Source of the DNA: Shigella phage vB_SsoM_JK08
Reading direction: 5' to 3' (one strand)
Length of the DNA: 64,000 nucleotides
Sequence record: LR877332
Position 1 is the first letter of the stretch; the number at the start of each line of letters is the position of its first letter. Position numbers and translations under genes: made by a program. Below the pieces are notes generated by a model. The model made no database searches. It saw nothing but the letters and a program-made list of their open reading frames with translations, and had not been told where the DNA came from. Below are positions 12,335 to 37,716 of this stretch, piece by piece.

Positions 12335-12362
12335 CCTTACCTTAAATAGATAAGGGTATTTA
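12335..12362 (-). terminator. hairpin followed by T-run
   Basis: cccttac...ataaggg inverted repeat with flanking T/A runs. Confidence 0.3.
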
Positions 12363-12368
12363 TTATTT

Positions 12369-12545
12369 TTAAGTATTGTAAAACATTCGATGCAATCGTT
12401 TATACTGTCGAATCATCTTTTTAGTAGGACGAGAATAGGTTCCTACGCAAGTGGTCATATGAGGGTCCGTAGAATGTCCTTTAATAAAAAGTTTCCAAAC
12501 CTTACCGCCATTTAACTTTTCAGTATAAACCAATTCGGTTTTCAT
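12369..12545 (-). CDS. small hypothetical protein (58 aa) sharing its C-terminal module with the neighbouring 167-aa ORF
   Basis: ATG (RC of 12543-12545) to TAA (RC of 12369-12371); C-terminus IRQYKRLHRMFYNT encoded by the 44-bp repeat. Confidence 0.4.
   Translation of the reverse strand: MKTELVYTEKLNGGKVWKLFIKGHSTDPHMTTCVGTYSRPTKKMIRQYKRLHRMFYNT
12371..12414. repeat. 44-bp direct repeat copy 1 (encodes the C-terminus and stop of the small ORF)
   Basis: about 90% identical to 12584-12627. Confidence 0.8.
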
Positions 12546-12557
12546 TAAAATGTCCTG

Positions 12558-12586
12558 TCAGAAAAAGAATTTTGAGTTTTTTCAAG
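12558..12586. repeat. flanking direct repeat DR1 (tcagaaaaagaattttgagttttttcaag)
   Basis: near-identical to 12634-12659 with one mismatch and a 3-nt indel. Confidence 0.75.
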
Positions 12587-13085
12587 TATTGTAAAACATT
12601 TGATGCAATCGCTTATATTGCCGAATCTTTTGGTCAGAAAAAGAAATTTGAGTTTCAAGCCATTCAATGTACTCTGCGGCAGCTTGCATCAGGTTACCTT
12701 CATAGCCATCGTTATTTTCTTGTGCAGCTAATTTAGCTAATGCGTATGAAATACGTTCACCTTGAAAATCGGCTTTAGGCTTCTGAACAACTTGATTAGT
12801 TCGCTCTACAACTTCTTCAATTTCGCCATTTTCGACTGATTCAGTATTCCACAAGCACCAATACGTAATTGGCTTATCGTAGATGTTAATAATCTTTCCG
12901 TCGGAAAGTTCAATTTCAATAATTCCAGTGTCAGGCTCTATATCATCTTCACATTCTTTTACAAGTTCACGAACTTTAAAGACAGTACCTGCACTAAGTT
13001 CCGGCCAGTAATTACATAGCCCTGTATCAACACGATTAATTCTAAACCACTTATCTACTGTAATCATGTCCCATCTCCATATCAA
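12582..13085 (-). CDS. hypothetical protein (167 aa)
   Basis: ORF; C-terminal 14 aa encoded by the repeat module. Confidence 0.55.
   Translation of the reverse strand: MIWRWDMITVDKWFRINRVDTGLCNYWPELSAGTVFKVRELVKECEDDIEPDTGIIEIELSDGKIINIYDKPITYWCLWNTESVENGEIEEVVERTNQVVQKPKADFQGERISYALAKLAAQENNDGYEGNLMQAAAEYIEWLETQISFSDQKIRQYKRLHQMFYNT
12584..12627. repeat. 44-bp direct repeat copy 2 (encodes the C-terminus and stop of the 167-aa ORF)
   Basis: about 90% identical to 12371-12414. Confidence 0.8.
12634..12659. repeat. flanking direct repeat DR2
   Basis: matches DR1. Confidence 0.75.
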
Positions 13086-13839: not shown

Positions 13840-14082
13840 TTATTCCTTAATTCCTAGTACTTGTTTAAAAGTCTCGTCGTAATCAAGACTTTGGCCCGTT
13901 TGTTCTTTATGTTTGTATATAATATCACTTACTTCTGATAGCATATTTTTATATGAACGAGTTAAAGCAGATTTAAGCACGCTGTATCTATCAGGAAATT
14001 TACCGTGTTCATTATAATAAGCTATTGCTAATTCACGGACTGCCTTTTCAGCAGCCTCCATATATTCTTTACGCTTGGTCAT
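13840..14082 (-). CDS. hypothetical protein
   Basis: 80-aa ORF. Confidence 0.5.
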
Positions 14083-14084
14083 TT

Positions 14085-14474
14085 TTAATCCAAAATATTA
14101 TTAGGCATTGGTTGAACACTCACAAGTTCTTTAAAGAACTCAGTAGAGTCAGGCAATTTAACCATTTCCGGAGCATGCTTACTGAATTTATGTTTACATT
14201 GACGGCATTTATATTCAAGCTCTGGTTTACGCCAGTTAATCAACTGAACTTGTTCAGTACCGCATTCAGGGCAATTAGGAACGTTTTTAGAAGCTCTTTC
14301 ACGTCGTTCAACCATAGCCATAATAGCATCCCATGCTGGAGGGTTAAAATCTAAATCGTCGCAGCCGTGAATCTTTCCACGCATTTCCATATCATCTTCC
14401 TCACCAGCCATAATAATTTTAATTAAACTGGAATTACTTGAAGCTGCAATGTCTTCTAATAAACGCTTTTTCAT
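14085..14474 (-). CDS. zinc-ribbon protein
   Basis: 129-aa ORF with CPECG...CRQC Cys pairs. Confidence 0.55.
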
Positions 14475-15400
14475 TTCAATACCTCAATAGCATTACGTAA
14501 ACCATTTGCTTTTGCATTAAGAGCTTTTAACAATTTGGTGTGTTCGGCAATCTGGGCTTCAACTTCAATCAAACGAGCATTGAGATATTCACGTTCTTCA
14601 CTCAGGTTATCAACCTTTTCTACTTTAGGTTCTTTTACAACTTGCTTATATGTATTAGGGTTCTTCAGTTTAATTAGAATGCGTGAACTGTACAGCATTG
14701 AACCATTATCTTCGGTTTCGTCATACATTTCCACTACGTCCATCATCTCCACCATCGTGCAGAGTTTATAAGACAACGAACGAATAATTTTGTTGTGCTT
14801 ATTAATTTCTCTAGCTGTCATGGTGCCGAGATTACGTGAGTAATAATAAGGAACCTGGATATTAATTAATACTGATGAACCACCTGGCTTGTGTGTTACT
14901 TCATCAGCAATAACCCAATCCTTAACATGAACTGTATTTGTACGGTCATCGCCCGCGGTAAATAGTTTACGAGCATGCTTAAAAAGCATATTCACTTGGT
15001 CATTGAATTGACAAGCGAATTTATCAGCAAATTTAGTTTCGGGAATGGTAGATAACCAATCAGCCAAATGGGTCTTTTTAACATCGTTAACAATAGTAAA
15101 TTCAACCAAATCGGTTATAGATGTCGCAGTTTTAATGAATCTCGGCTTCATAAAGTTTTTAATGTTATCACTAGCTACAGTAGAAGATAACAGACGAGAA
15201 CGTTTAAACCATTGAAGCAAATTGCCTAACGAATGAGAATAAGCGTTTTGAGTATCTTTACAGATATGATTTTCCTGGCCAACATATTGAAGGAAATCAC
15301 GAAGAATATTATTGATTACTGCTCTGTGTCCGATCTGATAATTACGGTGTTTAGTAATAAGACTGTCAAAATAATCAATATAATGTTTACGAGTTTTCAT
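14471..15400 (-). CDS. hypothetical protein, paralog family member A (C-terminal coiled coil)
   Basis: 309-aa ORF; shares mid-protein motif and heptad-rich tail with the three upstream ORFs. Confidence 0.6.
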   Translation of the reverse strand: MKTRKHYIDYFDSLITKHRNYQIGHRAVINNILRDFLQYVGQENHICKDTQNAYSHSLGNLLQWFKRSRLLSSTVASDNIKNFMKPRFIKTATSITDLVEFTIVNDVKKTHLADWLSTIPETKFADKFACQFNDQVNMLFKHARKLFTAGDDRTNTVHVKDWVIADEVTHKPGGSSVLINIQVPYYYSRNLGTMTAREINKHNKIIRSLSYKLCTMVEMMDVVEMYDETEDNGSMLYSSRILIKLKNPNTYKQVVKEPKVEKVDNLSEEREYLNARLIEVEAQIAEHTKLLKALNAKANGLRNAIEVLK

Positions 15401-15452
15401 ATTCTTCTCACTTGGTTAATGGTTTATACTCCGAGCCATCCTTGGCTTTAAA

Positions 15453-16454
15453 TTACTTAATTAACTGTAAAGCTTGTTCAAGACGATCAAGACGATTAAC
15501 GGATTCTTCCCAAATCTTTTTAGCCTGCTCATATTCTTTCTGCGCTTTATTAGAAATTTCTAGAACTTCTTTATAAGCTTTTTCTAGTGCAATAACTTCT
15601 GGACGAATTTCTACTGGTTCAGGCGAATCGTCAAGACATTCCATTAGTTCCTCAAGGGTAGTTTCTTCTTTAGGAGTATTCACAATTTCATCACATTTTT
15701 GTTGGTAAATTTCTTTATCAGTCGGTGAGTACGCACACTTTACTTCACGGAGACTAACTACAATTTTATATCCTTCCCAACCGCATATATTCTTAAAAGG
15801 ATAAGTATGAATATTTTCTACTGTTTCCATACAAAGTAATGCGGTCTCTAACTGACGAGTTATATCGCTAGCAATTGAGAAAAATTTATTAATGTTCTTT
15901 TGATTAGCTTCTGGTGTAAAAAATTCATAATTCACAAAAATAGCTGCTTTATTTTTATCAAGCTCATATTCTTTTATGATAATCATATCAGAAGCCCAAG
16001 GATGGATTTGACGATAATCACCATAGCATAATTTAGAAGCTGATTTTAGAATTTGCTTCTTGAAAAGTCTAAAATTACTAATCCAACGACGAGTAAAAAT
16101 ATTCTCAGGGTCTTCTTTATTATTAAGATGATAAGAATTAACATCACCGAACCAACTGTATCCTACTACATCTTTAGTTCGTTTAATTTCTTTCCCAAAT
16201 TTACCAAGAATATCTTGATTAACTAAATATGAAAGAAGACGAGAACCTTTAAAAGTTTCCTTAATATCATCTTTATATTCGCGACTAGAAATTTTATGAA
16301 CTTCATGAATAAATTTGCTTGAAGAAACAATACTTGCATCAATATTATTGAGCCATTGATTGATAATGGAAATAACACTATTCTGACTAAACACAGGTTT
16401 AACTTTATCATCAATAACGCTATTGAATGATTTGATATATTCGTTACGAGTCAT
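15453..16454 (-). CDS. hypothetical protein, paralog family member B (start refined to internal ATG)
   Basis: ORF-track ORF 15453..16505; promoter -10 at 16483-16488 and GAGGAG RBS place the start at 16454 (333 aa). Confidence 0.6.
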   Translation of the reverse strand: MTRNEYIKSFNSVIDDKVKPVFSQNSVISIINQWLNNIDASIVSSSKFIHEVHKISSREYKDDIKETFKGSRLLSYLVNQDILGKFGKEIKRTKDVVGYSWFGDVNSYHLNNKEDPENIFTRRWISNFRLFKKQILKSASKLCYGDYRQIHPWASDMIIIKEYELDKNKAAIFVNYEFFTPEANQKNINKFFSIASDITRQLETALLCMETVENIHTYPFKNICGWEGYKIVVSLREVKCAYSPTDKEIYQQKCDEIVNTPKEETTLEELMECLDDSPEPVEIRPEVIALEKAYKEVLEISNKAQKEYEQAKKIWEESVNRLDRLEQALQLIK

Positions 16455-16482
16455 ATTAATCTCCTCAGTAGAAAGTAAGAAC

Positions 16483-16511
16483 ATTATACCACATCCTTGT
16501 GGCAAAGTAAA
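16483..16511 (-). promoter_or_regulatory. sigma70-type early promoter (-35 TTTACT, extended -10 TGgTATAAT)
   Basis: RC of 16483-16488 = TATAAT with TGG; 17-nt spacer to GTTTAC-like -35. Confidence 0.55.
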
Positions 16512-17531
16512 CTAGTTTAGTGCATTTAGTGCATTGTTCAGTTTAGAACGTTGCTTCGTAAGATTTTTGACTTTTTCTTGAGCTTTTTCTAGCATCTTTT
16601 CAGCTTCTAACACTTCATTAGTTGCTTTAACGAGTTCATCATCTACTGCCTTGATAGACTTCTCAATCGCATCCGCGTGCCATTTTTCAACAGGTTTAAG
16701 ACTCGGATTTTCAACAGGAAGAAAATTCACTTTATTGAATTTCCATGTATCTTTATTACCTGAACTATACATCCAAAATTTAGGATCGTTTGATGAGTAA
16801 TTGGATAAATTTAAGATATCTTGCACTTCCTGCTTTTTCTCTTGCGGGACTTCGTCCTTTCTCAAAAAATCGTATTTAAATGAAACGATCATATCAAGTT
16901 CATACGTTGTTGTATGTTCCCAATTTCGCTCAAAATGAGGTAAAATCTTAGACTGAACCGCGGCAACTACATCCATATACTTAAATGCTTCTGTCAACTG
17001 TGATTTAAGGCATTCACAAATTGAAAGAGAATTTTTTGTATTAGGTTTAAAGCTAATTCGTGCAGTTCTGTTATTTTCTTTTAATGGTCTTACTTCCATC
17101 TGAAGAGTATAACCATCAAATTTCAGATTCTTTAAGTTAATATCAGAACCTTTTAATCGACTAGCCGTCGACAAAATTTGCTTTAATTGTTTACGGAATA
17201 GAGCAATAAATCTCCACTCAATACGATAATGATTTGGATTAAAAAATCCTGTTGATAAATCAACCTTACTCTGACCAACGCCTTGAACAAATAGAGGATT
17301 TTTATAATCAATAGTTTTACAGAAATCGGTGAGCTGCTCACGAGCCGTCATTTGTGTAATATACCCCGCTTTACTAAAATGACGTAACCATTCACTGCTA
17401 TTCATATATTTAAAGTGAATATCACGATTAACTTTATCAGGGTCTAAATTATTTTGGCACAAAAATGTCATAACATCACGAGTATAACTGGCATTACGAA
17501 CCATATCTTCAATTTGAGAACGAGTTTTCAT
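16512..17531 (-). CDS. hypothetical protein, paralog family member C
   Basis: 339-aa ORF; motif WRFIALFRKQLKQILSTASRL resembles member B RRWISNFRLFKKQILKSASKL. Confidence 0.6.
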   Translation of the reverse strand: MKTRSQIEDMVRNASYTRDVMTFLCQNNLDPDKVNRDIHFKYMNSSEWLRHFSKAGYITQMTAREQLTDFCKTIDYKNPLFVQGVGQSKVDLSTGFFNPNHYRIEWRFIALFRKQLKQILSTASRLKGSDINLKNLKFDGYTLQMEVRPLKENNRTARISFKPNTKNSLSICECLKSQLTEAFKYMDVVAAVQSKILPHFERNWEHTTTYELDMIVSFKYDFLRKDEVPQEKKQEVQDILNLSNYSSNDPKFWMYSSGNKDTWKFNKVNFLPVENPSLKPVEKWHADAIEKSIKAVDDELVKATNEVLEAEKMLEKAQEKVKNLTKQRSKLNNALNALN

Positions 17532-17539
17532 GGTGTTCC

Positions 17540-18442
17540 TTAAGATTTAAGTAAATCAACAATTTTAATTAACTTTTCACGCTCAGATTTAGCTTTACTA
17601 CTCAATCCAGATAGTCTGAAAATTTCATCATCATATTGTTGAATAGAAATATTCAGCTCTTCAATTTGCTTATTAAAATAATCAATTTGCTCAGAATGTT
17701 TTTCATTACTACGAACTGGTACAGGTTTTGTAGGCAATTTAGTTGAACTGGATTCATCCGGGCGATAAATTAAAATACAATTTGAACCAATCGGGCATTT
17801 AGCACCAGACACATATTCTAGTGTTCCAGCTTCTTTTAAAACTTCAAAAGCTAAACAGAGATGATGACCCATATTGACATAATCTGTAGAGTGAGCTCTG
17901 ATATAATAATCATCTCCACGAGTACTAAATTTAAAGCATTTAAGGTCTTCTGTATTATTAGTTTTAAAAATCATTTGTTTATCTAGACCTTTAGCTAATC
18001 GAGCGCCTAATGCTAATAATCGTCGTTGATTTTCCCACAAATCTGCGATCATTTGGTCAAATGATAATTTCGGCATTAGTCGACCATAAAGGTCATATCC
18101 TTTATTATAATTGCGAAGGATTTCACTCGCATTAATACGAGACAACGCTCCAATTTTATTAAGGGCTTTCATGATGCGATTAGATAAACCCATTCCAGAT
18201 CCGTTTGTTCGTTGCAAATGTTTATCTAATCCAAACCCAATATCAACTTTAAATTTATCTAAAATTTCAGCATGAACATCTCTGTCAATAACATTCAAAT
18301 CCAAAGTTGGGTTAAATCTATGAAAAAATTTATCTGGCTCTCCACGACGAAGTACAGTCCATTCATTTAATTTTTTATTAACTAAAGATTTAATTACTGC
18401 ATTGACATTATTAATTACTACTGACATATTTTTCTCACTCAA
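17540..18442 (-). CDS. hypothetical protein, paralog family member D
   Basis: 300-aa ORF; similar motif RRLLALGARLAKGLD; coiled-coil tail. Confidence 0.55.
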   Translation of the reverse strand: MSEKNMSVVINNVNAVIKSLVNKKLNEWTVLRRGEPDKFFHRFNPTLDLNVIDRDVHAEILDKFKVDIGFGLDKHLQRTNGSGMGLSNRIMKALNKIGALSRINASEILRNYNKGYDLYGRLMPKLSFDQMIADLWENQRRLLALGARLAKGLDKQMIFKTNNTEDLKCFKFSTRGDDYYIRAHSTDYVNMGHHLCLAFEVLKEAGTLEYVSGAKCPIGSNCILIYRPDESSSTKLPTKPVPVRSNEKHSEQIDYFNKQIEELNISIQQYDDEIFRLSGLSSKAKSEREKLIKIVDLLKS

Positions 18443-18843
18443 TTTTCAATTTTACTAAATACACAGAATATGATGGAAAAGACTATATAAGCACCGCATA
18501 CAGATTGAACTAATACCATTCCAAAGAACCAAACAATATTATCAAACAATGTCTGTTTTACGTCGAAAGGACGTAAACTTACAGTAATATTATCGCCTTT
18601 TTCTATTGATGAATACATCTCTGGTGAAATATATTCACTAAATCTATAACCGTCTTTGAGTTCATATACGGCAATAAACGATAAACTAGACCCCTTTCCT
18701 TGAGTTCCTGTAAGGGTATTAACTACAGTAACATCATAATCTTTATAATGCATATAATCATTAATTGCATAATAACCATATGCAACTACTACACATAAAC
18801 AACATATCAATAAATTCAATCTTTTAATTATCAACTGTTTCAT
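18439..18843 (-). CDS. membrane protein
   Basis: 134-aa ORF with N- and C-terminal hydrophobic helices. Confidence 0.55.
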   Translation of the reverse strand: MKQLIIKRLNLLICCLCVVVAYGYYAINDYMHYKDYDVTVVNTLTGTQGKGSSLSFIAVYELKDGYRFSEYISPEMYSSIEKGDNITVSLRPFDVKQTLFDNIVWFFGMVLVQSVCGAYIVFSIIFCVFSKIEN

Positions 18844-18872
18844 AATAATCTCAATTAAAAGGGCTTAGAACC

Positions 18873-18901
18873 ATTATACCATCCTTGGTATAAAGCGGTT
18901 A
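18873..18901 (-). promoter_or_regulatory. extended -10 promoter (TGgTATAAT), weak -35
   Basis: RC of 18873-18878 = TATAAT preceded by TGG. Confidence 0.35.
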
Positions 18902-19426
18902 TGCGAGTACCGTCTTTAACCGTTCTTCAAACTTCCGAAGAGTATTCTGGCGTTCAGCTCTTTGCTTTTTGTAAGTTTCAATACGCTCTGAAATGAGAGT
19001 GTATCGTTCATTTACTGATTCTTTCATAAAATCAGGAATTTCACGAGAAGCTTTAATCTCATCAAATTTATCAATAACAGCTTGCTCTTCAGCAATTAAG
19101 TTATCATACATCAAAATATCTTTCTTGATGAACTCAATATCTTCTTGAGTTACACGAGATAACTTAGATGCTTTATCCTTTTTGTACTGTTCGTTAGTAT
19201 CACGAGACCAGTGTAATGTACGATTTTTATTCGTATTCTTGTAAATTTCTACAATACCAATCTCATCAATAATAACGATCCAATTCCAACGGGATTTGTA
19301 AATTTGTCCTCCATCAACCGTGATTTCACCACCGATTGAGACATCATTAAAGAACTTGCTTTGAGCTTCAGATTTAAATTTACCATCATTGTAGTTTACC
19401 AAGTTGAAAATATCTTTAGCATTCAT
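18899..19426 (-). CDS. hypothetical protein
   Basis: 175-aa ORF. Confidence 0.55.
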   Translation of the reverse strand: MNAKDIFNLVNYNDGKFKSEAQSKFFNDVSIGGEITVDGGQIYKSRWNWIVIIDEIGIVEIYKNTNKNRTLHWSRDTNEQYKKDKASKLSRVTQEDIEFIKKDILMYDNLIAEEQAVIDKFDEIKASREIPDFMKESVNERYTLISERIETYKKQRAERQNTLRKFEERLKTVLA

Positions 19427-19453
19427 TTTTGTTCCTCCGTAGTTGATAGTTGT

Positions 19454-19482
19454 ATAGTACCACAGAGGAACAGTCTTGTAAA
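19454..19482 (-). promoter_or_regulatory. sigma70-type early promoter (-35 GTTTACA, -10 TGgTACTAT)
   Basis: RC of 19477-19482 = TTTACA, 17-nt spacer, RC of 19454-19459 = TACTAT. Confidence 0.5.
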
Positions 19483-19485
19483 CAA

Positions 19486-19800
19486 CTAAAAGAAACTTCT
19501 TTCACAATTTTTTCCACTGAACCACGCGCTCACTGCTTTCTTAGTCTCAGGAGCAGTGTTATCCATAAACCATTCAAAGGCAGCCTTTTTATGATTCTGG
19601 AGGGCTTCTCGGGCTTTAATCTGCTCACGGTCTATTAACACTAACATATGAGCCTTTCTTGTCACCAGGGGCTTCTTATGATTTTTTGAATACTCCCAAT
19701 CATTTGTCCATCGCATCGTTGTTGCGAATTGAAGTACAGCTTCCTTAATCTTAGTTTCGTAAATTTCACGAGCCTTTGAGTATAACATCATTACCTCCAT
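19486..19800 (-). CDS. hypothetical protein
   Basis: 104-aa ORF. Confidence 0.5.
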   Translation of the reverse strand: MEVMMLYSKAREIYETKIKEAVLQFATTMRWTNDWEYSKNHKKPLVTRKAHMLVLIDREQIKAREALQNHKKAAFEWFMDNTAPETKKAVSAWFSGKNCERSFF

Positions 19801-19891
19801 TTACCAGTTTAATTCTAGTCATCTTTTTGATGGCAGTCCCATATAATCTATTTCTGAACTGCCTTTTTGTCTTAGAAGGCCTCTTATGAAT

Positions 19892-20872
19892 TTATTTCAG
19901 AAGAGTAACCGTAGCGATTTCTTCCCAACCGTTTTTGTCGGTCATAATGAAGTCAGCAAGATAAAGAGCAGTACGCAGTGAAACATTACGTAAACGGTTA
20001 ACATTGACTTTCATCCATGATAATGCTTTATAAGTTTCTTCATCAGAAAGACCGCGCTTTTGCATCATGTCGGTTGAAAGAATAACATCTTCAACCCTGA
20101 CCATAATTTCTTCATTAGTGTGAACACCCAAATCTAAATAAACTGAGCGGGACACTAATGCTTGTAAATGTGGAGCAAGTTTAGTACCACGGTCTAATTC
20201 GCGGTCAATATCAACGTTTGTGATAAAAACAATCGTTCCTTTAAATTCAAACTCACGCTCAATGCCTTTTTCTTCTAAGTAAGAAGATGCAGTGCTCCAG
20301 CAGACTTTACGGGTCTCTCCAGTGTCCAGAGCAGCTTTCAGAAGATTAAGAATGTCCATATCAGAGAAAACATCCACATCATCAATCAAAAGGACAGAAT
20401 TCTCTTCACGATTATTCCAGAGCTGCTCATAAAGACCGATACCTGAGATTTTACCATTAATGCTTTTATACTCAATGTATCCAATATCATTTGCTTTATT
20501 TAAAGCTTTATCTAAAGAATACGTTTTACCAATACCCGCCGCACCAGAGATAATTAATGAACGAATGTTTCCGTTAATAATACCATTCGTCATCATTCCC
20601 ATAACATTAAATCTTTTATTAATGCGGGTTTTCATATCTTCATATGATTCTTTAACTTCTTCAACTTTTACACCATCATATGAAATGTCTGATTTGTAAA
20701 CCCAAACACCGCGACGCTTACCGTCAATTTCAACAAAAACTTTACCATCTCCTTGTGCATCCACCGGAGCATTATCTGGGAACCATTCGCCTAAGAGCTC
20801 AAAAGTTCCAGAGATTTCTTTACCAAAGTAGATACCCTTATTGATAGTTACAGTTTTCATTTTATTCTCCAA
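19892..20872 (-). CDS. P-loop NTPase (AAA-like ATPase) with N-terminal extra domain
   Basis: 326-aa ORF; Walker A GAAGIGKT, Walker B VLLIDDVD, sensor-like FITN. Confidence 0.65.
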   Translation of the reverse strand: MENKMKTVTINKGIYFGKEISGTFELLGEWFPDNAPVDAQGDGKVFVEIDGKRRGVWVYKSDISYDGVKVEEVKESYEDMKTRINKRFNVMGMMTNGIINGNIRSLIISGAAGIGKTYSLDKALNKANDIGYIEYKSINGKISGIGLYEQLWNNREENSVLLIDDVDVFSDMDILNLLKAALDTGETRKVCWSTASSYLEEKGIEREFEFKGTIVFITNVDIDRELDRGTKLAPHLQALVSRSVYLDLGVHTNEEIMVRVEDVILSTDMMQKRGLSDEETYKALSWMKVNVNRLRNVSLRTALYLADFIMTDKNGWEEIATVTLLK

Positions 20873-20894
20873 ATCCGTATCAGTTGATAGTTGT

Positions 20895-20923
20895 ATAGTA
20901 CCATAAAGCTTTATGCTTGTAAA
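20895..20923 (-). promoter_or_regulatory. sigma70-type early promoter (-35 GTTTACA, -10 TGgTACTAT)
   Basis: RC of 20918-20923 = TTTACA, 17-nt spacer, RC of 20895-20900 = TACTAT; A-rich upstream element. Confidence 0.5.
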
Positions 20924-20945
20924 CCGTTTTGTGAAAAATTTTTGA

Positions 20946-20972
20946 AATAAAAAAGGGAGCCCGAAGGCTCCC
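20946..20972 (-). terminator. intrinsic terminator (UUCG hairpin + U-run)
   Basis: gggagcc-cgaa-ggctccc at 20955-20972 with A-run 20948-20954 on plus. Confidence 0.6.
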
Positions 20973-20974
20973 TA

Positions 20975-21988
20975 TCATTTATAATAACTTCGGTGGTTTT
21001 CAAGATAGACCTTCTCAAGGAAGTCATCCCAGAAACCCATGTCTACTTTTTGCTGCATACCGTTCTTAGAAGCTTCAGTAGATGCTGCTTCTACTTGATC
21101 GACCACATCTTCCAAAAACTCTTGAACGGTTTTAAATGGATGTTTACCCAACTTCACGTCGAGAATAAATGGAGCGTCTTGAAGTGGATAGACTAAGTCG
21201 CCAGTTTTGTAAATTTCCAATAGTTGGAGTCCACCACGGCAAGCATGACTCAAAGCTTTCCAGTCAATACCTTCATTGGCTTCGGCCTTACGAGCACGTT
21301 CACCGTATTCAGCATCTAATTTATTCAGTGACTGCTTAAGCTCAATAAGAGAAAGCGTTGTCTGATATTTACGACCCAACACTGTGTAGAACGTTTGTGG
21401 GCCTGTTTTCTCATGATTATGGAACACCCATTCACAGAATTCGTTTTCTGGAAGACGATGCTTAATATCTTCAACTTTAGTACGACGCTGCTTAATGGAA
21501 CCGTCTTCTTGGTAATCAACCCATTGCTCAGGGATTTGATTAACTACTTTCAATACATCACGCAATGCGGCCAAACGAGAACCCTTAACACCATATTTAG
21601 AAGCTTGCTTGCGGACATATCCTAAATAGGATTTCATGTTAGTCGTATAAAAACGAGAACGATTGTCTTGAATAAACTTCCATACATCAGGCAAATCTGA
21701 TTTAACCACTAGCTCAGGTGGAGTGTGAAGCATATCCAACGCTACAGTTTCACCATCTGCTGCTAATTTAAAGAAATATTTAAGACTGTATAGTTCATGG
21801 TCAATATCATCTTTAGTGTTTTTAGATGATGTGTTGTTAGTGTTTTTACTCATGTGCTCTTTGACATTTCCGATAAGAATATCGCGAGCAGGAGGAACAA
21901 AGATTTCTTTAAAATCGACATCAGATTCTGGTGTAGAAGTTCCATAAAGATGACTACCAAAATAACTTTTCATTACTGTTTTCATCAT
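20975..21988 (-). CDS. nucleotidyltransferase-fold protein (Pol-beta/minimal NTase superfamily motif)
   Basis: 337-aa ORF; N-terminal FGSHLYGTSTPESDVDF fits hG[GS]-x(9-13)-DhD; downstream VALDMLH candidate third acidic residue. Confidence 0.55.
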   Translation of the reverse strand: MMKTVMKSYFGSHLYGTSTPESDVDFKEIFVPPARDILIGNVKEHMSKNTNNTSSKNTKDDIDHELYSLKYFFKLAADGETVALDMLHTPPELVVKSDLPDVWKFIQDNRSRFYTTNMKSYLGYVRKQASKYGVKGSRLAALRDVLKVVNQIPEQWVDYQEDGSIKQRRTKVEDIKHRLPENEFCEWVFHNHEKTGPQTFYTVLGRKYQTTLSLIELKQSLNKLDAEYGERARKAEANEGIDWKALSHACRGGLQLLEIYKTGDLVYPLQDAPFILDVKLGKHPFKTVQEFLEDVVDQVEAASTEASKNGMQQKVDMGFWDDFLEKVYLENHRSYYK

Positions 21989-36888: not shown

Positions 36889-36964
36889 TGGTCGAGGCAG
36901 TAGGGATCGAACCTACGACCCAGGACTTAGAAGGTCCTTGCTCTTCCTTCTGAGCTATGCCTCG
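36889..36964 (-). tRNA. tRNA-Arg (anticodon UCU), CCA encoded
   Basis: manual cloverleaf: acceptor cgaggca/tgcctcg, T-arm gtagg-gatcgaa-cctac, anticodon loop CUUCUAA. Confidence 0.8.
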
Positions 36965-36968
36965 TATT

Positions 36969-37043
36969 TGGCGGACGTGATAGGATTCGAACCTATAACC
37001 AATCGCTTAACAGGCGATCGCTCTGCCATTGAGCTACACATCC
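36969..37043 (-). tRNA. tRNA-Asn (anticodon GUU), CCA encoded
   Basis: manual cloverleaf with 4-bp D stem, GG in D loop, anticodon loop CUGUUAA, T loop UUCGAAU. Confidence 0.65.
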
Positions 37044-37047
37044 AAAT

Positions 37048-37134
37048 TGGTGGGGAGTGGTGGAGTCGAACCACCCGAGTCGCAATGACAATGAATTTAC
37101 AGTCCACACCGCTACCTCTACGGGATAACTCCCC
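37048..37134 (-). tRNA. tRNA-Tyr-like (anticodon GUA), long variable arm, atypical D-arm
   Basis: acceptor ggggagt/actcccc, T-arm ggtgg-agtcgaa-ccacc, anticodon loop CUGUAAA; anticodon stem has 2 G-U pairs and D-arm connector is irregular. Confidence 0.5.
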
Positions 37135-37143
37135 AAATTAATT

Positions 37144-37218
37144 TGGTGGCCCTGGGTGGAATTGAACCACCATCTGGCGATTATGAGTCGCTTGCTTGAA
37201 CCTTCCAGCTACAGGGCC
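37144..37218 (-). tRNA. tRNA with CAU anticodon (Met or Ile2)
   Basis: acceptor ggccctg/cagggcc, anticodon loop CUCAUAA. Confidence 0.75.
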
Positions 37219-37219
37219 T

Positions 37220-37295
37220 TGGTGCTGATTGACGGAATCGAACCGCCGACCTTCTCATTACAAGTGAGTTGCTCTACCTACTGAGCTAAATCAGC
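37220..37295 (-). tRNA. tRNA-Thr (anticodon UGU)
   Basis: acceptor gctgatt/aatcagc, anticodon loop CUUGUAA. Confidence 0.75.
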
Positions 37296-37300
37296 AAAAC

Positions 37301-37390
37301 TGGCGGAGGCGATAGGATTTGAACCTATGAGTCGCCGGAGCGACTGCCGGTTTTCAAGACCGGTGCATTAAACCACTCTGCCACGCCTCC
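37301..37390 (-). tRNA. tRNA-Ser (anticodon UGA), long variable arm
   Basis: acceptor ggaggcg/cgcctcc, variable stem gtcgc/gcgac, anticodon loop CUUGAAA. Confidence 0.75.
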
Positions 37391-37392
37391 AG

Positions 37393-37466
37393 TCTCCGTG
37401 GCAGGATTTGAACCTACGACATTCTGCTCCCAAAGCAGACGCTCTACCAAACTGAGCTACACGGAG
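37393..37466 (-). tRNA. tRNA-Pro (anticodon UGG), CCA not encoded
   Basis: acceptor ctccgtg/cacggag, anticodon loop UUUGGGA. Confidence 0.7.
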
Positions 37467-37476
37467 TAAATTAAAT

Positions 37477-37550
<74 letters not shown>

Positions 37551-37555
37551 AAATT

Positions 37556-37642
37556 TGGTGCGAGAAGTGGGACTCGAACCCACAAGGAAATCATTCCGCA
37601 GCATTTTAAGTGCTGTGCCTTTACCAATTTGGCCATTCTCGC
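37556..37642 (-). tRNA. tRNA-Leu (anticodon UAA), long variable arm
   Basis: acceptor gcgagaa/ttctcgc, variable stem ggaa/ttcc, anticodon loop CUUAAAA. Confidence 0.75.
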
Positions 37643-37643
37643 G

Positions 37644-37716
37644 CTGGGAATAAAGGACTCGAACCTTTGCATCCTGGAATCAAAATCCAGTGCCTTACCA
37701 ACTTGGCTAATTCCCA
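37644..37716 (-). tRNA. tRNA-Gln (anticodon UUG), CCA not encoded
   Basis: acceptor tgggaat/attccca, anticodon stem ctgga/tccag, loop UUUUGAU. Confidence 0.7.

Follow-up and report, generated by a model that had tools for sequence, protein, structure and literature searches.

The subject of this report is a tandem array of four genes, nrdC.3, nrdC.4, nrdC.5 and nrdC.6, in the genome of Shigella phage vB_SsoM_JK08 (sequence record LR877332), of which a stretch of 64,000 nucleotides (hereafter, the window) was analyzed. Between positions 14000 and 19000 the window matches Yersinia phage PYps35T at 100% identity and, at 92-98%, hundreds of Tequatrovirus genomes in which these genes carry the names nrdC.3 to nrdC.6; judging by this nucleotide identity, the window comes from a Tequatrovirus.

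The nrdC.3-nrdC.6 locus

The four genes lie within a longer series in the order gene 49 (endonuclease VII), pin, nrdC, nrdC.1, nrdC.2, then nrdC.3 to nrdC.6, then nrdC.7 to nrdC.11, all on the minus strand. The coordinates of the array and the principal family matches of its products, which are given with their lengths in amino acids (aa), are as follows:

14471..15400, minus strand: nrdC.3 (paralogue A), 309 aa; PHROG 1435, E=2e-115
15453..16454, minus strand: nrdC.4 (paralogue B), 333 aa counted from the ATG; PHROG 1435, E=2e-166
16512..17531, minus strand: nrdC.5 (paralogue C), 339 aa; DUF7235, PF23882, 420 bits
17540..18427, minus strand: nrdC.6 (paralogue D), 295 aa counted from the ATG; PHROG 2257, E=7e-153

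The initial annotation, which was made from the sequence alone, described four consecutive minus-strand open reading frames (ORFs), and its coordinates and lengths stand with the exception of the start of nrdC.6. The mechanical ORF of this gene (17540-18442) yields 300 aa from a TTG, 5 residues more than from the ATG, and the shorter gene ending at 18427 is more likely because the orthologues all begin at the downstream ATG (MSQAIN.., MSITSD..). The mechanical ORF of nrdC.4 also extends to a TTG, at 16505; its ATG is preceded by a GAGGAG Shine-Dalgarno sequence.

In the databases, the four products are divided among three families of unknown function that are treated as unrelated. The only curated domain match is that of nrdC.5 to the uncharacterized DUF7235 (PF23882), which covers residues 1-339 and scores far above the cut-off of 30 bits; nrdC.3, nrdC.4 and nrdC.6 did not match PF23882 in the Pfam scan, so that membership in DUF7235 is limited to paralogue C. 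For the other proteins, Pfam membership was read from the precomputed labels of their homologues (PF26897, PF23882 and PF26899 in the set as a whole): 64/64 homologues of nrdC.4 carry the label PF26897 (Phage_T4_Y04OP) and 105/105 homologues of ORF 17540-18427 (nrdC.6) carry PF26899 (Phage_T4_Y05B), and nrdC.3, which shares PHROG 1435 with nrdC.4 (E<=2e-115 for both), is accordingly of the PF26897 type. The division in PHROGs is the same, with nrdC.3 and nrdC.4 in one family and nrdC.5 and nrdC.6 each elsewhere (PHROGs 1435, 2351 and 2257, respectively).

Homology and architecture of the four proteins

Pairwise BLASTP cannot decide on paralogy because it is significant for the nrdC.3-nrdC.4 pair only (E=7e-7, 24% over 229 aa), the remaining five of the six pairs being non-significant. 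Among the 241 ORFs of the window, HMMER profile-versus-sequence searches linked nrdC.4 and nrdC.5 as reciprocal best yet weak matches (E=0.023 and 0.15) and gave no link for nrdC.6. Together with the three separate families in Pfam and PHROGs, these results would fit the possibility that the resemblance is compositional or convergent, that is, that four AT-rich phage ORFs of comparable length, all of which encode a coiled coil, look alike without being paralogues.

This possibility is contradicted by profile-profile comparisons (hhalign), for which family alignments were built from database homologues and divergent orthologues recovered from annotated phage genomes. The protein nrdC.3 matches the nrdC.4 family at 97.7% hhalign probability (E=1.7e-12). 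The match between the joint nrdC.3/4 family and nrdC.5 rose with the growing diversity of the alignments from 35% through 76% and 91.9% (E=7e-7) to 93.8% (final E=1.7e-7, score 59.5, compared with 16-18 for reversed-template controls), and it persists when the coiled-coil tails are trimmed (75%, E=2.5e-5), which shows that it is not tail-driven. The comparisons that involve nrdC.6 gave at first 1-14% and rose once relatives from Karamvirus and Tegunavirus joined the alignment: the nrdC.6 profile now matches nrdC.3/4 at 89.9% (E=1.7e-6), with the aligned nrdC.6 residues 67-168 located outside the tail, and nrdC.5 at 63% (E=7e-5; controls 14-20). Within the proposed superfamily, nrdC.6 is the weakest link. 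Overall, the real scores of 32-60 are 2-4 times those of the reversed-template controls (12-20).

Two further lines of evidence join the four proteins. Iterative hidden Markov model (HMM) searches with tail-less profiles, run against 366 local ORFs, among which all window ORFs served as decoys, converge on all four when seeded with nrdC.3 or nrdC.5, and recruit zero decoys. Bridging sequences exist as well: in Klebsiella phage PKO111, a Jiaodavirus, a 324-aa ORF is similar to the profiles of nrdC.3/4 (94%) and of nrdC.6 (78%) alike, and the metagenomic protein P0234 combines a body of the nrdC.3/4 type with a tail of the nrdC.5 type. The PKO111 ORF (L006 12145-13119; NC_031095) is unannotated in RefSeq, where it falls in the gap between gp069 and gp070.

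Motifs that align in all four proteins were mapped on the window using the superfamily alignment and, for the second of them, the hhalign comparisons as well:

16014..16091, minus strand: mid-protein motif of nrdC.4 (residues 122-147), on the helix-turn-helix pair of the core
14945-15022, minus strand: mid-protein motif of nrdC.3
17154-17216, minus strand: mid-protein motif of nrdC.5
17981-18058, minus strand: mid-protein motif of nrdC.6
16197..16253, minus strand: second motif, F-K-x-S-R-L-L-S...A..[DE].L..F, of nrdC.4 (residues 68-86), at the end of the N-terminal helical domain
15152-15208, minus strand: second motif of nrdC.3
17322-17378, minus strand: second motif of nrdC.5
18107-18163, minus strand: second motif of nrdC.6

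The second motif (FKxSRLLS...A..D.L..F) was aligned in every hhalign comparison, and a third, L..AL..M..V, is found in the superfamily alignment of all four. The alignments are collinear across 83-257 columns, and the three motifs fall on matching secondary-structure elements of two AlphaFold2 models, those of nrdC.4 and nrdC.6, which were each built from a separate alignment (mean predicted local distance difference test score, pLDDT, 82.6 and 78.4, respectively). In both models the order of elements is identical: helices at the N-terminus come first, then a helix-turn-helix pair, a beta hairpin and a long helix, followed by another beta hairpin, a linker of low confidence and a long C-terminal helix. 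In the nrdC.4 model, a three-strand beta meander follows the N-terminal helices and precedes the helix pair; it is nearly missing in nrdC.6. The mid-protein motif lies on the helix pair in each of the two models (nrdC.4 residues 119-142 and nrdC.6 residues 123-144). The residues conserved across the superfamily alignment are mostly hydrophobic or structural.

A Foldseek search of BFVD with the nrdC.4 model retrieved NrdC.6 of phage JS10 (E=1.4e-5) as well as a 308-aa protein of phage fPS-65, probably an nrdC.3, and the latter was also found with the nrdC.6 model (E=3e-3). The structural neighbors common to both models are proteins of 280-374 aa from T4-like phages of Enterobacter, Pectobacterium, Acinetobacter and Serratia, with E from 1e-4 to 1e-7. 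Global template-modelling (TM) scores are 0.2-0.5, low because of the flexible tail.

All four proteins end in a tail of 49 residues that was examined with a heptad test:

15456..15602, minus strand: heptad tail of nrdC.4 (last 49 residues)
14474-14620, minus strand: heptad tail of nrdC.3
16515-16661, minus strand: heptad tail of nrdC.5
17543-17689, minus strand: heptad tail of nrdC.6

Hydrophobic residues occupy 86-93% of the heptad a/d positions of these tails compared with 17-29% of the other positions (shuffle p<=0.0025 for all four), the heptad is unbroken over the 49 residues, and the register counted from the C-terminus is identical in the four proteins, which finish in a similar L-x-x-A-[LI]-x-x-L-K. 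The tail is modelled as one long helix in nrdC.4 (residues 285-332) and as two in nrdC.6 (242-271 and 277-294), and is the best-conserved region inside each family. Between the families, tail-only profile comparison detected weak similarity for the pairs nrdC.3/4-nrdC.5 and nrdC.5-nrdC.6 and none for nrdC.3/4-nrdC.6 (score 10), so that the tails look family-specific. With regard to function, the tails may oligomerize.

Two observations on tails in individual proteins can be added. The nrdC.6 protein of Shigella phage Sf25 (P0122, 378 aa) contains an 83-residue internal tandem duplication (IRAHSTDY...NKQIEEL twice) that covers the second half of the core and the start of the tail and is either real or an assembly artefact. 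The neighboring nrdC.8 (18899-19426, 175 aa) ends in a heptad-like helix, ...ERQNTLRKFEERLKTVLA, is recruited by no nrdC.3-6 profile, and has a weak PHROG match to a head scaffolding protein.

In sum, nrdC.3-6 are confirmed as true paralogues that form one superfamily across three database families, as the initial annotation had proposed from a shared architecture. Pairwise and HMM alignment reveals similarity beyond composition, with the nrdC.3/4-nrdC.5 match holding without the tails and controls scoring far lower; the remote-homology searches link the families; and the conserved mid-protein motif and the heptad-rich C-terminal helix, put at 40-50 residues in that annotation, are both recovered. 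The predicted common plan consists of a helical N-terminus, an alpha/beta core with the helix-pair motif, a disordered linker and the heptad tail, in agreement with the globular N-terminal region, motif and coiled-coil tail of the original description. The collinear motifs in two independent models and the shared structural neighbors thus add to the tail-independent scores, the bridging sequences and the decoy-free searches, and the compositional explanation is largely refuted for nrdC.3, nrdC.4 and nrdC.5; for the array as a whole, we consider it highly improbable.

Distribution, divergence and neighborhood

The superfamily is restricted to Straboviridae. An exhaustive HMMER search of 1.84 billion cluster representatives returned only 10 matches to the nrdC.3/4 family (E<=1e-3), none of which was a bacterial protein or one with an annotated function. 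Records matched by the four proteins in the phage collection number 553-741, compared with 1311 for the conserved neighbor nrdC.10. The gene order by genus or phage is:

Tequatrovirus: nrdC.6-nrdC.5-nrdC.4-nrdC.3
Dhakavirus and phage P8: nrdC.6-(small ORF)-nrdC.5-nrdC.4
Mosigvirus: nrdC.6-nrdC.5-nrdC.3

Remoter members are located in this region as well, in Moon-, Jiaoda-, Karam- and Tegunavirus and also in phage Acj61 of Acinetobacter. Because the order is shared by Tequatro-, Mosig- and Dhakavirus, the duplications are ancient, predating the split of these genera. Of the local paralog expansion with rapid divergence that had been suggested for the array, paralogy and fast divergence therefore stand, whereas a recent expansion does not. 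Copy number varies both between and within genera: nrdC.4 is missing from the Tequatroviruses EC121 and RPN226 and from Mosigvirus, and nrdC.3 is missing from Dhakavirus. A metagenomic protein, P0056 (corresponding to window positions 14471-17096), is a chimera in which nrdC.5 residues 146-270 are joined directly to nrdC.3 residues 137-309, that is, the product of a natural deletion that removed nrdC.4 and fused two paralogues.

Identity between genera is 23-28% for nrdC.5, 32-52% for nrdC.6 and 46-51% for nrdC.4, compared with 69-90% for nrdC, nrdC.8, nrdC.10, nrdC.11 and gp49. Within the genus, nrdC.5 of the window is 92% identical to its T4 counterpart, and nrdC.3 is 60% identical to T4 nrdC.3 (most flanking genes, 92-100%), with 77-90% identity at the ends of the protein and 37-57% in the core. 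The nrdC.3 gene occurs as two within-genus alleles that differ in the core only, a cassette-like pattern. The gene-wide ratio of nonsynonymous to synonymous substitution rates (dN/dS) is elevated, at 0.13-0.30, for nrdC.3-5; it is 0.07-0.09 for nrdC.6 and about 0-0.12 for most flanking genes.

The region also holds several features outside the coding sequences of the array or adjacent to it. The gap between nrdC.5 and nrdC.4 contains one promoter-like site:

16483..16511, minus strand: sigma-70-like promoter consensus, TTTACT-17-TATAAT with TG extension, a pattern match only

This pattern overlaps a small hairpin (16487-16504), and a promoter and terminator scan of the region found such sites to be no commoner than in shuffled sequences. 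The Rfam scan found nothing at the nrdC.3-6 locus; elsewhere in the window it located nine clustered tRNA genes (36892-37716, minus strand) that constitute a T4-type tRNA region. Next to the array, nrdC.2 (14085-14474) encodes a zinc-ribbon protein with two CxxC pairs, the C-terminus of which varies between phages: it has 129 aa in the window and in EC121 (96% identity over the full length) and is shorter in T4 (104 aa) and RPN226, where it matches only ~77% of the length of the window protein. Farther on, a 63-nucleotide direct repeat (12352-12414 and 12565-12627, 83% identity) copies the 3' end of pin (ORF 12582-13085) onto the 3' end of the small downstream ORF 12369-12545, and the two products share the C-terminal sequence IRQYKRLH(R/Q)MFYNT.

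Function of the nrdC.3-nrdC.6 proteins

Functional information on the array comes from T4. When nrdC.5, described as an uncharacterized early gene, is expressed, a T4 deletion clone plates again on cells that carry Dsr1 from ECOR17 (PMC9391042), and the trigger that Dsr1 senses through its TPR domain is the major capsid protein of the phage (2026 preprint, PMC12803255). The window gene is the orthologue of this T4 gene, as indicated by the sequence identity, the full-length match to PF23882 and the equal position in the array. Among the NrdC.5 orthologues, it is the T4 protein that has been assayed, and the assay was genetic; nrdC.3, nrdC.4 and nrdC.6 are related to it at the level of profile and fold alone. 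The literature search turned up no described function for nrdC.3, nrdC.4, nrdC.6 or the Pfam/PHROG families, and no significant match of nrdC.3-6 to an enzyme or defence family was obtained with Pfam, NCBIfam or PADLOC. Weak matches to PHL, the N-terminal domain of XerC/XerD (nrdC.3 residues 30-88), BrxC, DUF4164 and SEC10/PgrA were all far under the cut-offs and were taken as noise or as coiled-coil composition; the BrxC match, to nrdC.4 residues 258-331 (E=0.005), was the sole one in PADLOC and of the coiled-coil type. A sequence search of the PDB with the nrdC.3/4 profile retrieved nothing but designed helical-repeat proteins.

Other genes of the same co-oriented accessory block, which extends from gene 49 to nrdC.11 and includes small dispensable genes, have been implicated in counter-defence: gp49.2 inhibits OLD (PMC13096335) and NrdC.1 inhibits Septu (bioRxiv 10.1101/2025.11.20.689424). 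Both differ from nrdC.3-6 in being non-homologous, recruited by no profile and much shorter. A functional analogy, and no more than that, can be drawn between nrdC.5 and DSAD1 of SPbeta, an inhibitor of the SIR2 NADase DSR2; DSAD1 is a phage protein that counters a defence-associated sirtuin activated by a phage structural protein (PMC10981675, PMC11087589, PMC11263360). The likeness is that nrdC.5 counters Dsr1, a SIR2-TPR NADase activated by the major capsid protein; the differences are that DSAD1 showed no sequence or fold similarity to the nrdC family in any search and that the nrdC proteins are ~300-aa proteins with a coiled-coil tail.

The interpretation that appears most economical to us, and that we consider reasonably likely, is that nrdC.3-6 form a coiled-coil family of non-enzymatic inhibitors, directed against immune sensors or effectors of the host, in which each copy has another target. 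Each protein would inhibit its own sensor or effector by binding it stoichiometrically, with the variable core responsible for target specificity and the coiled-coil tail for oligomerization and hence avidity; the four genes are dispensable accessory genes within an anti-defence island. In favor of this reading are the homology of the four proteins, the lack of any enzyme signature, the counter-defence genes nearby, and an arms-race signature made up of a core that diverges much faster than the flanking genes, the low identity between genera, the core-limited alleles of nrdC.3 and the gain and loss of genes. For nrdC.5, direct binding to Dsr1 may be envisaged, for example, by occluding the capsid-recognizing TPR sensor or by locking the SIR2 domain. 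Given that nrdC.5 is a published blocker of Dsr1, nrdC.3, nrdC.4 and nrdC.6 are good candidates for proteins that act against other defences. The host-interaction or anti-defence role suggested in the initial annotation thus finds published support for nrdC.5, and for the other three proteins, we infer it.

Several observations weigh against this interpretation. The literature search yielded no binding partner or mechanism for nrdC.5, and functional data exist for this protein alone of the four; the same protein falls outside the pair for which AlphaFold2 models were obtained. The oligomerizing role of the tails is a reading of their heptad pattern, and pLDDT in the nrdC.4 tail is only 61-74. 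Support for the inclusion of nrdC.6 is asymmetric: in the reverse direction, the hhalign match of nrdC.3/4 to nrdC.6 is 38% (E=3.3e-4) and that of nrdC.5 to nrdC.6 is 16% (E=1.6e-3), and the iterative search seeded with nrdC.6 stalls after one step without the tails and needs the tail to proceed, so that membership of nrdC.6 rests on reciprocal searches, profile-profile scores, bridging sequences and structure. Finally, dN/dS computed over whole genes stays under 1 in each of the four, with no positive selection detected at this level, and by the same measure nrdC.6 evolves within the genus no faster than some flanking genes.

An alternative that we consider unlikely is that the four proteins are subunits of a single hetero-oligomeric machine with one function, in which the register-matched tails are bundled. 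Adjacency and co-orientation of the genes, the common C-terminus-anchored register with its similar terminal motif, and the high conservation of the tails within each family are all compatible with such a complex. However, plasmid-borne nrdC.5 alone restored plating on Dsr1 cells (although the deletion phage may still carry paralogues), natural genomes lack nrdC.4 (EC121, RPN226 and Mosigvirus) or nrdC.3 (Dhakavirus), and the tails appear to be family-specific in the tail-only comparison.

A reading that we hold to be similarly doubtful starts from the fold of the core. Tail-terminator and tail-completion proteins (lambda gpU, SPP1 gp17-like proteins, T5 p142) were retrieved with grey-zone scores that are shared with unrelated alpha/beta sandwiches, and nrdC.3-6 showed no sequence similarity to these proteins. 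The core might be a domesticated structural fold of this type that is expressed before the actual virion proteins and serves as an oligomeric decoy saturating host pattern-recognition sensors; each paralogue would then be tuned to another sensor class, and so would each divergent allele of the core (for nrdC.3, its two types), with the TPR sensor common to Dsr1 and Avs7 as the first example. That the proteins have a role in morphogenesis, as accessory assembly or virion-related proteins with a diverged tail-terminator or tail-completion core and a scaffold coiled coil, seems very improbable: the genes are dispensable and lie in an early accessory block, and the proteins differ from tail terminators by the added N-terminal helical and C-terminal coiled-coil parts. 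The weakest alternative, that nrdC.3-6 are accessory proteins of nucleotide metabolism or redox chemistry, as could be read from their 'nrdC.x' names, their proximity to nrdC and the 'thioredoxin' label in many GenBank records, can be practically dismissed on sequence and predicted fold, given that Pfam and NCBIfam models of thioredoxin and glutaredoxin matched none of the four, that the predicted folds are not thioredoxin-like, and that the records of related phages apply the label indiscriminately to nrdC.1-nrdC.11 (the region of window positions 13840-21988), which points to carry-over from nrdC. Compared with the inhibitor family, all of these readings, along with the compositional one, are less well supported.

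The genes themselves and one of their functions were already known. What is modestly new is that three database families are united in one superfamily; this union, the map of the domains and the standing of nrdC.3, nrdC.4 and nrdC.6 as candidates are the part that is both new and testable. The widespread 'thioredoxin' mis-annotation of nrdC.3-6 is corrected. For work on the mechanism of nrdC.5, the map would assign specificity to the core and oligomerization to the tail, and natural specificity variants for the mapping of sensors are at hand in the two core alleles of nrdC.3 and in the fast-diverging orthologues from Mosig-, Dhaka-, Karam-, Jiaoda- and Tegunavirus and Acinetobacter phages. For T4, the best-studied lytic phage, the superfamily supplies three specific new candidates for anti-defence proteins; should the decoy reading prove true, T4-like phages would have in the array a general 'anti-sensor' toolkit, and its members would not be unrelated inhibitors.

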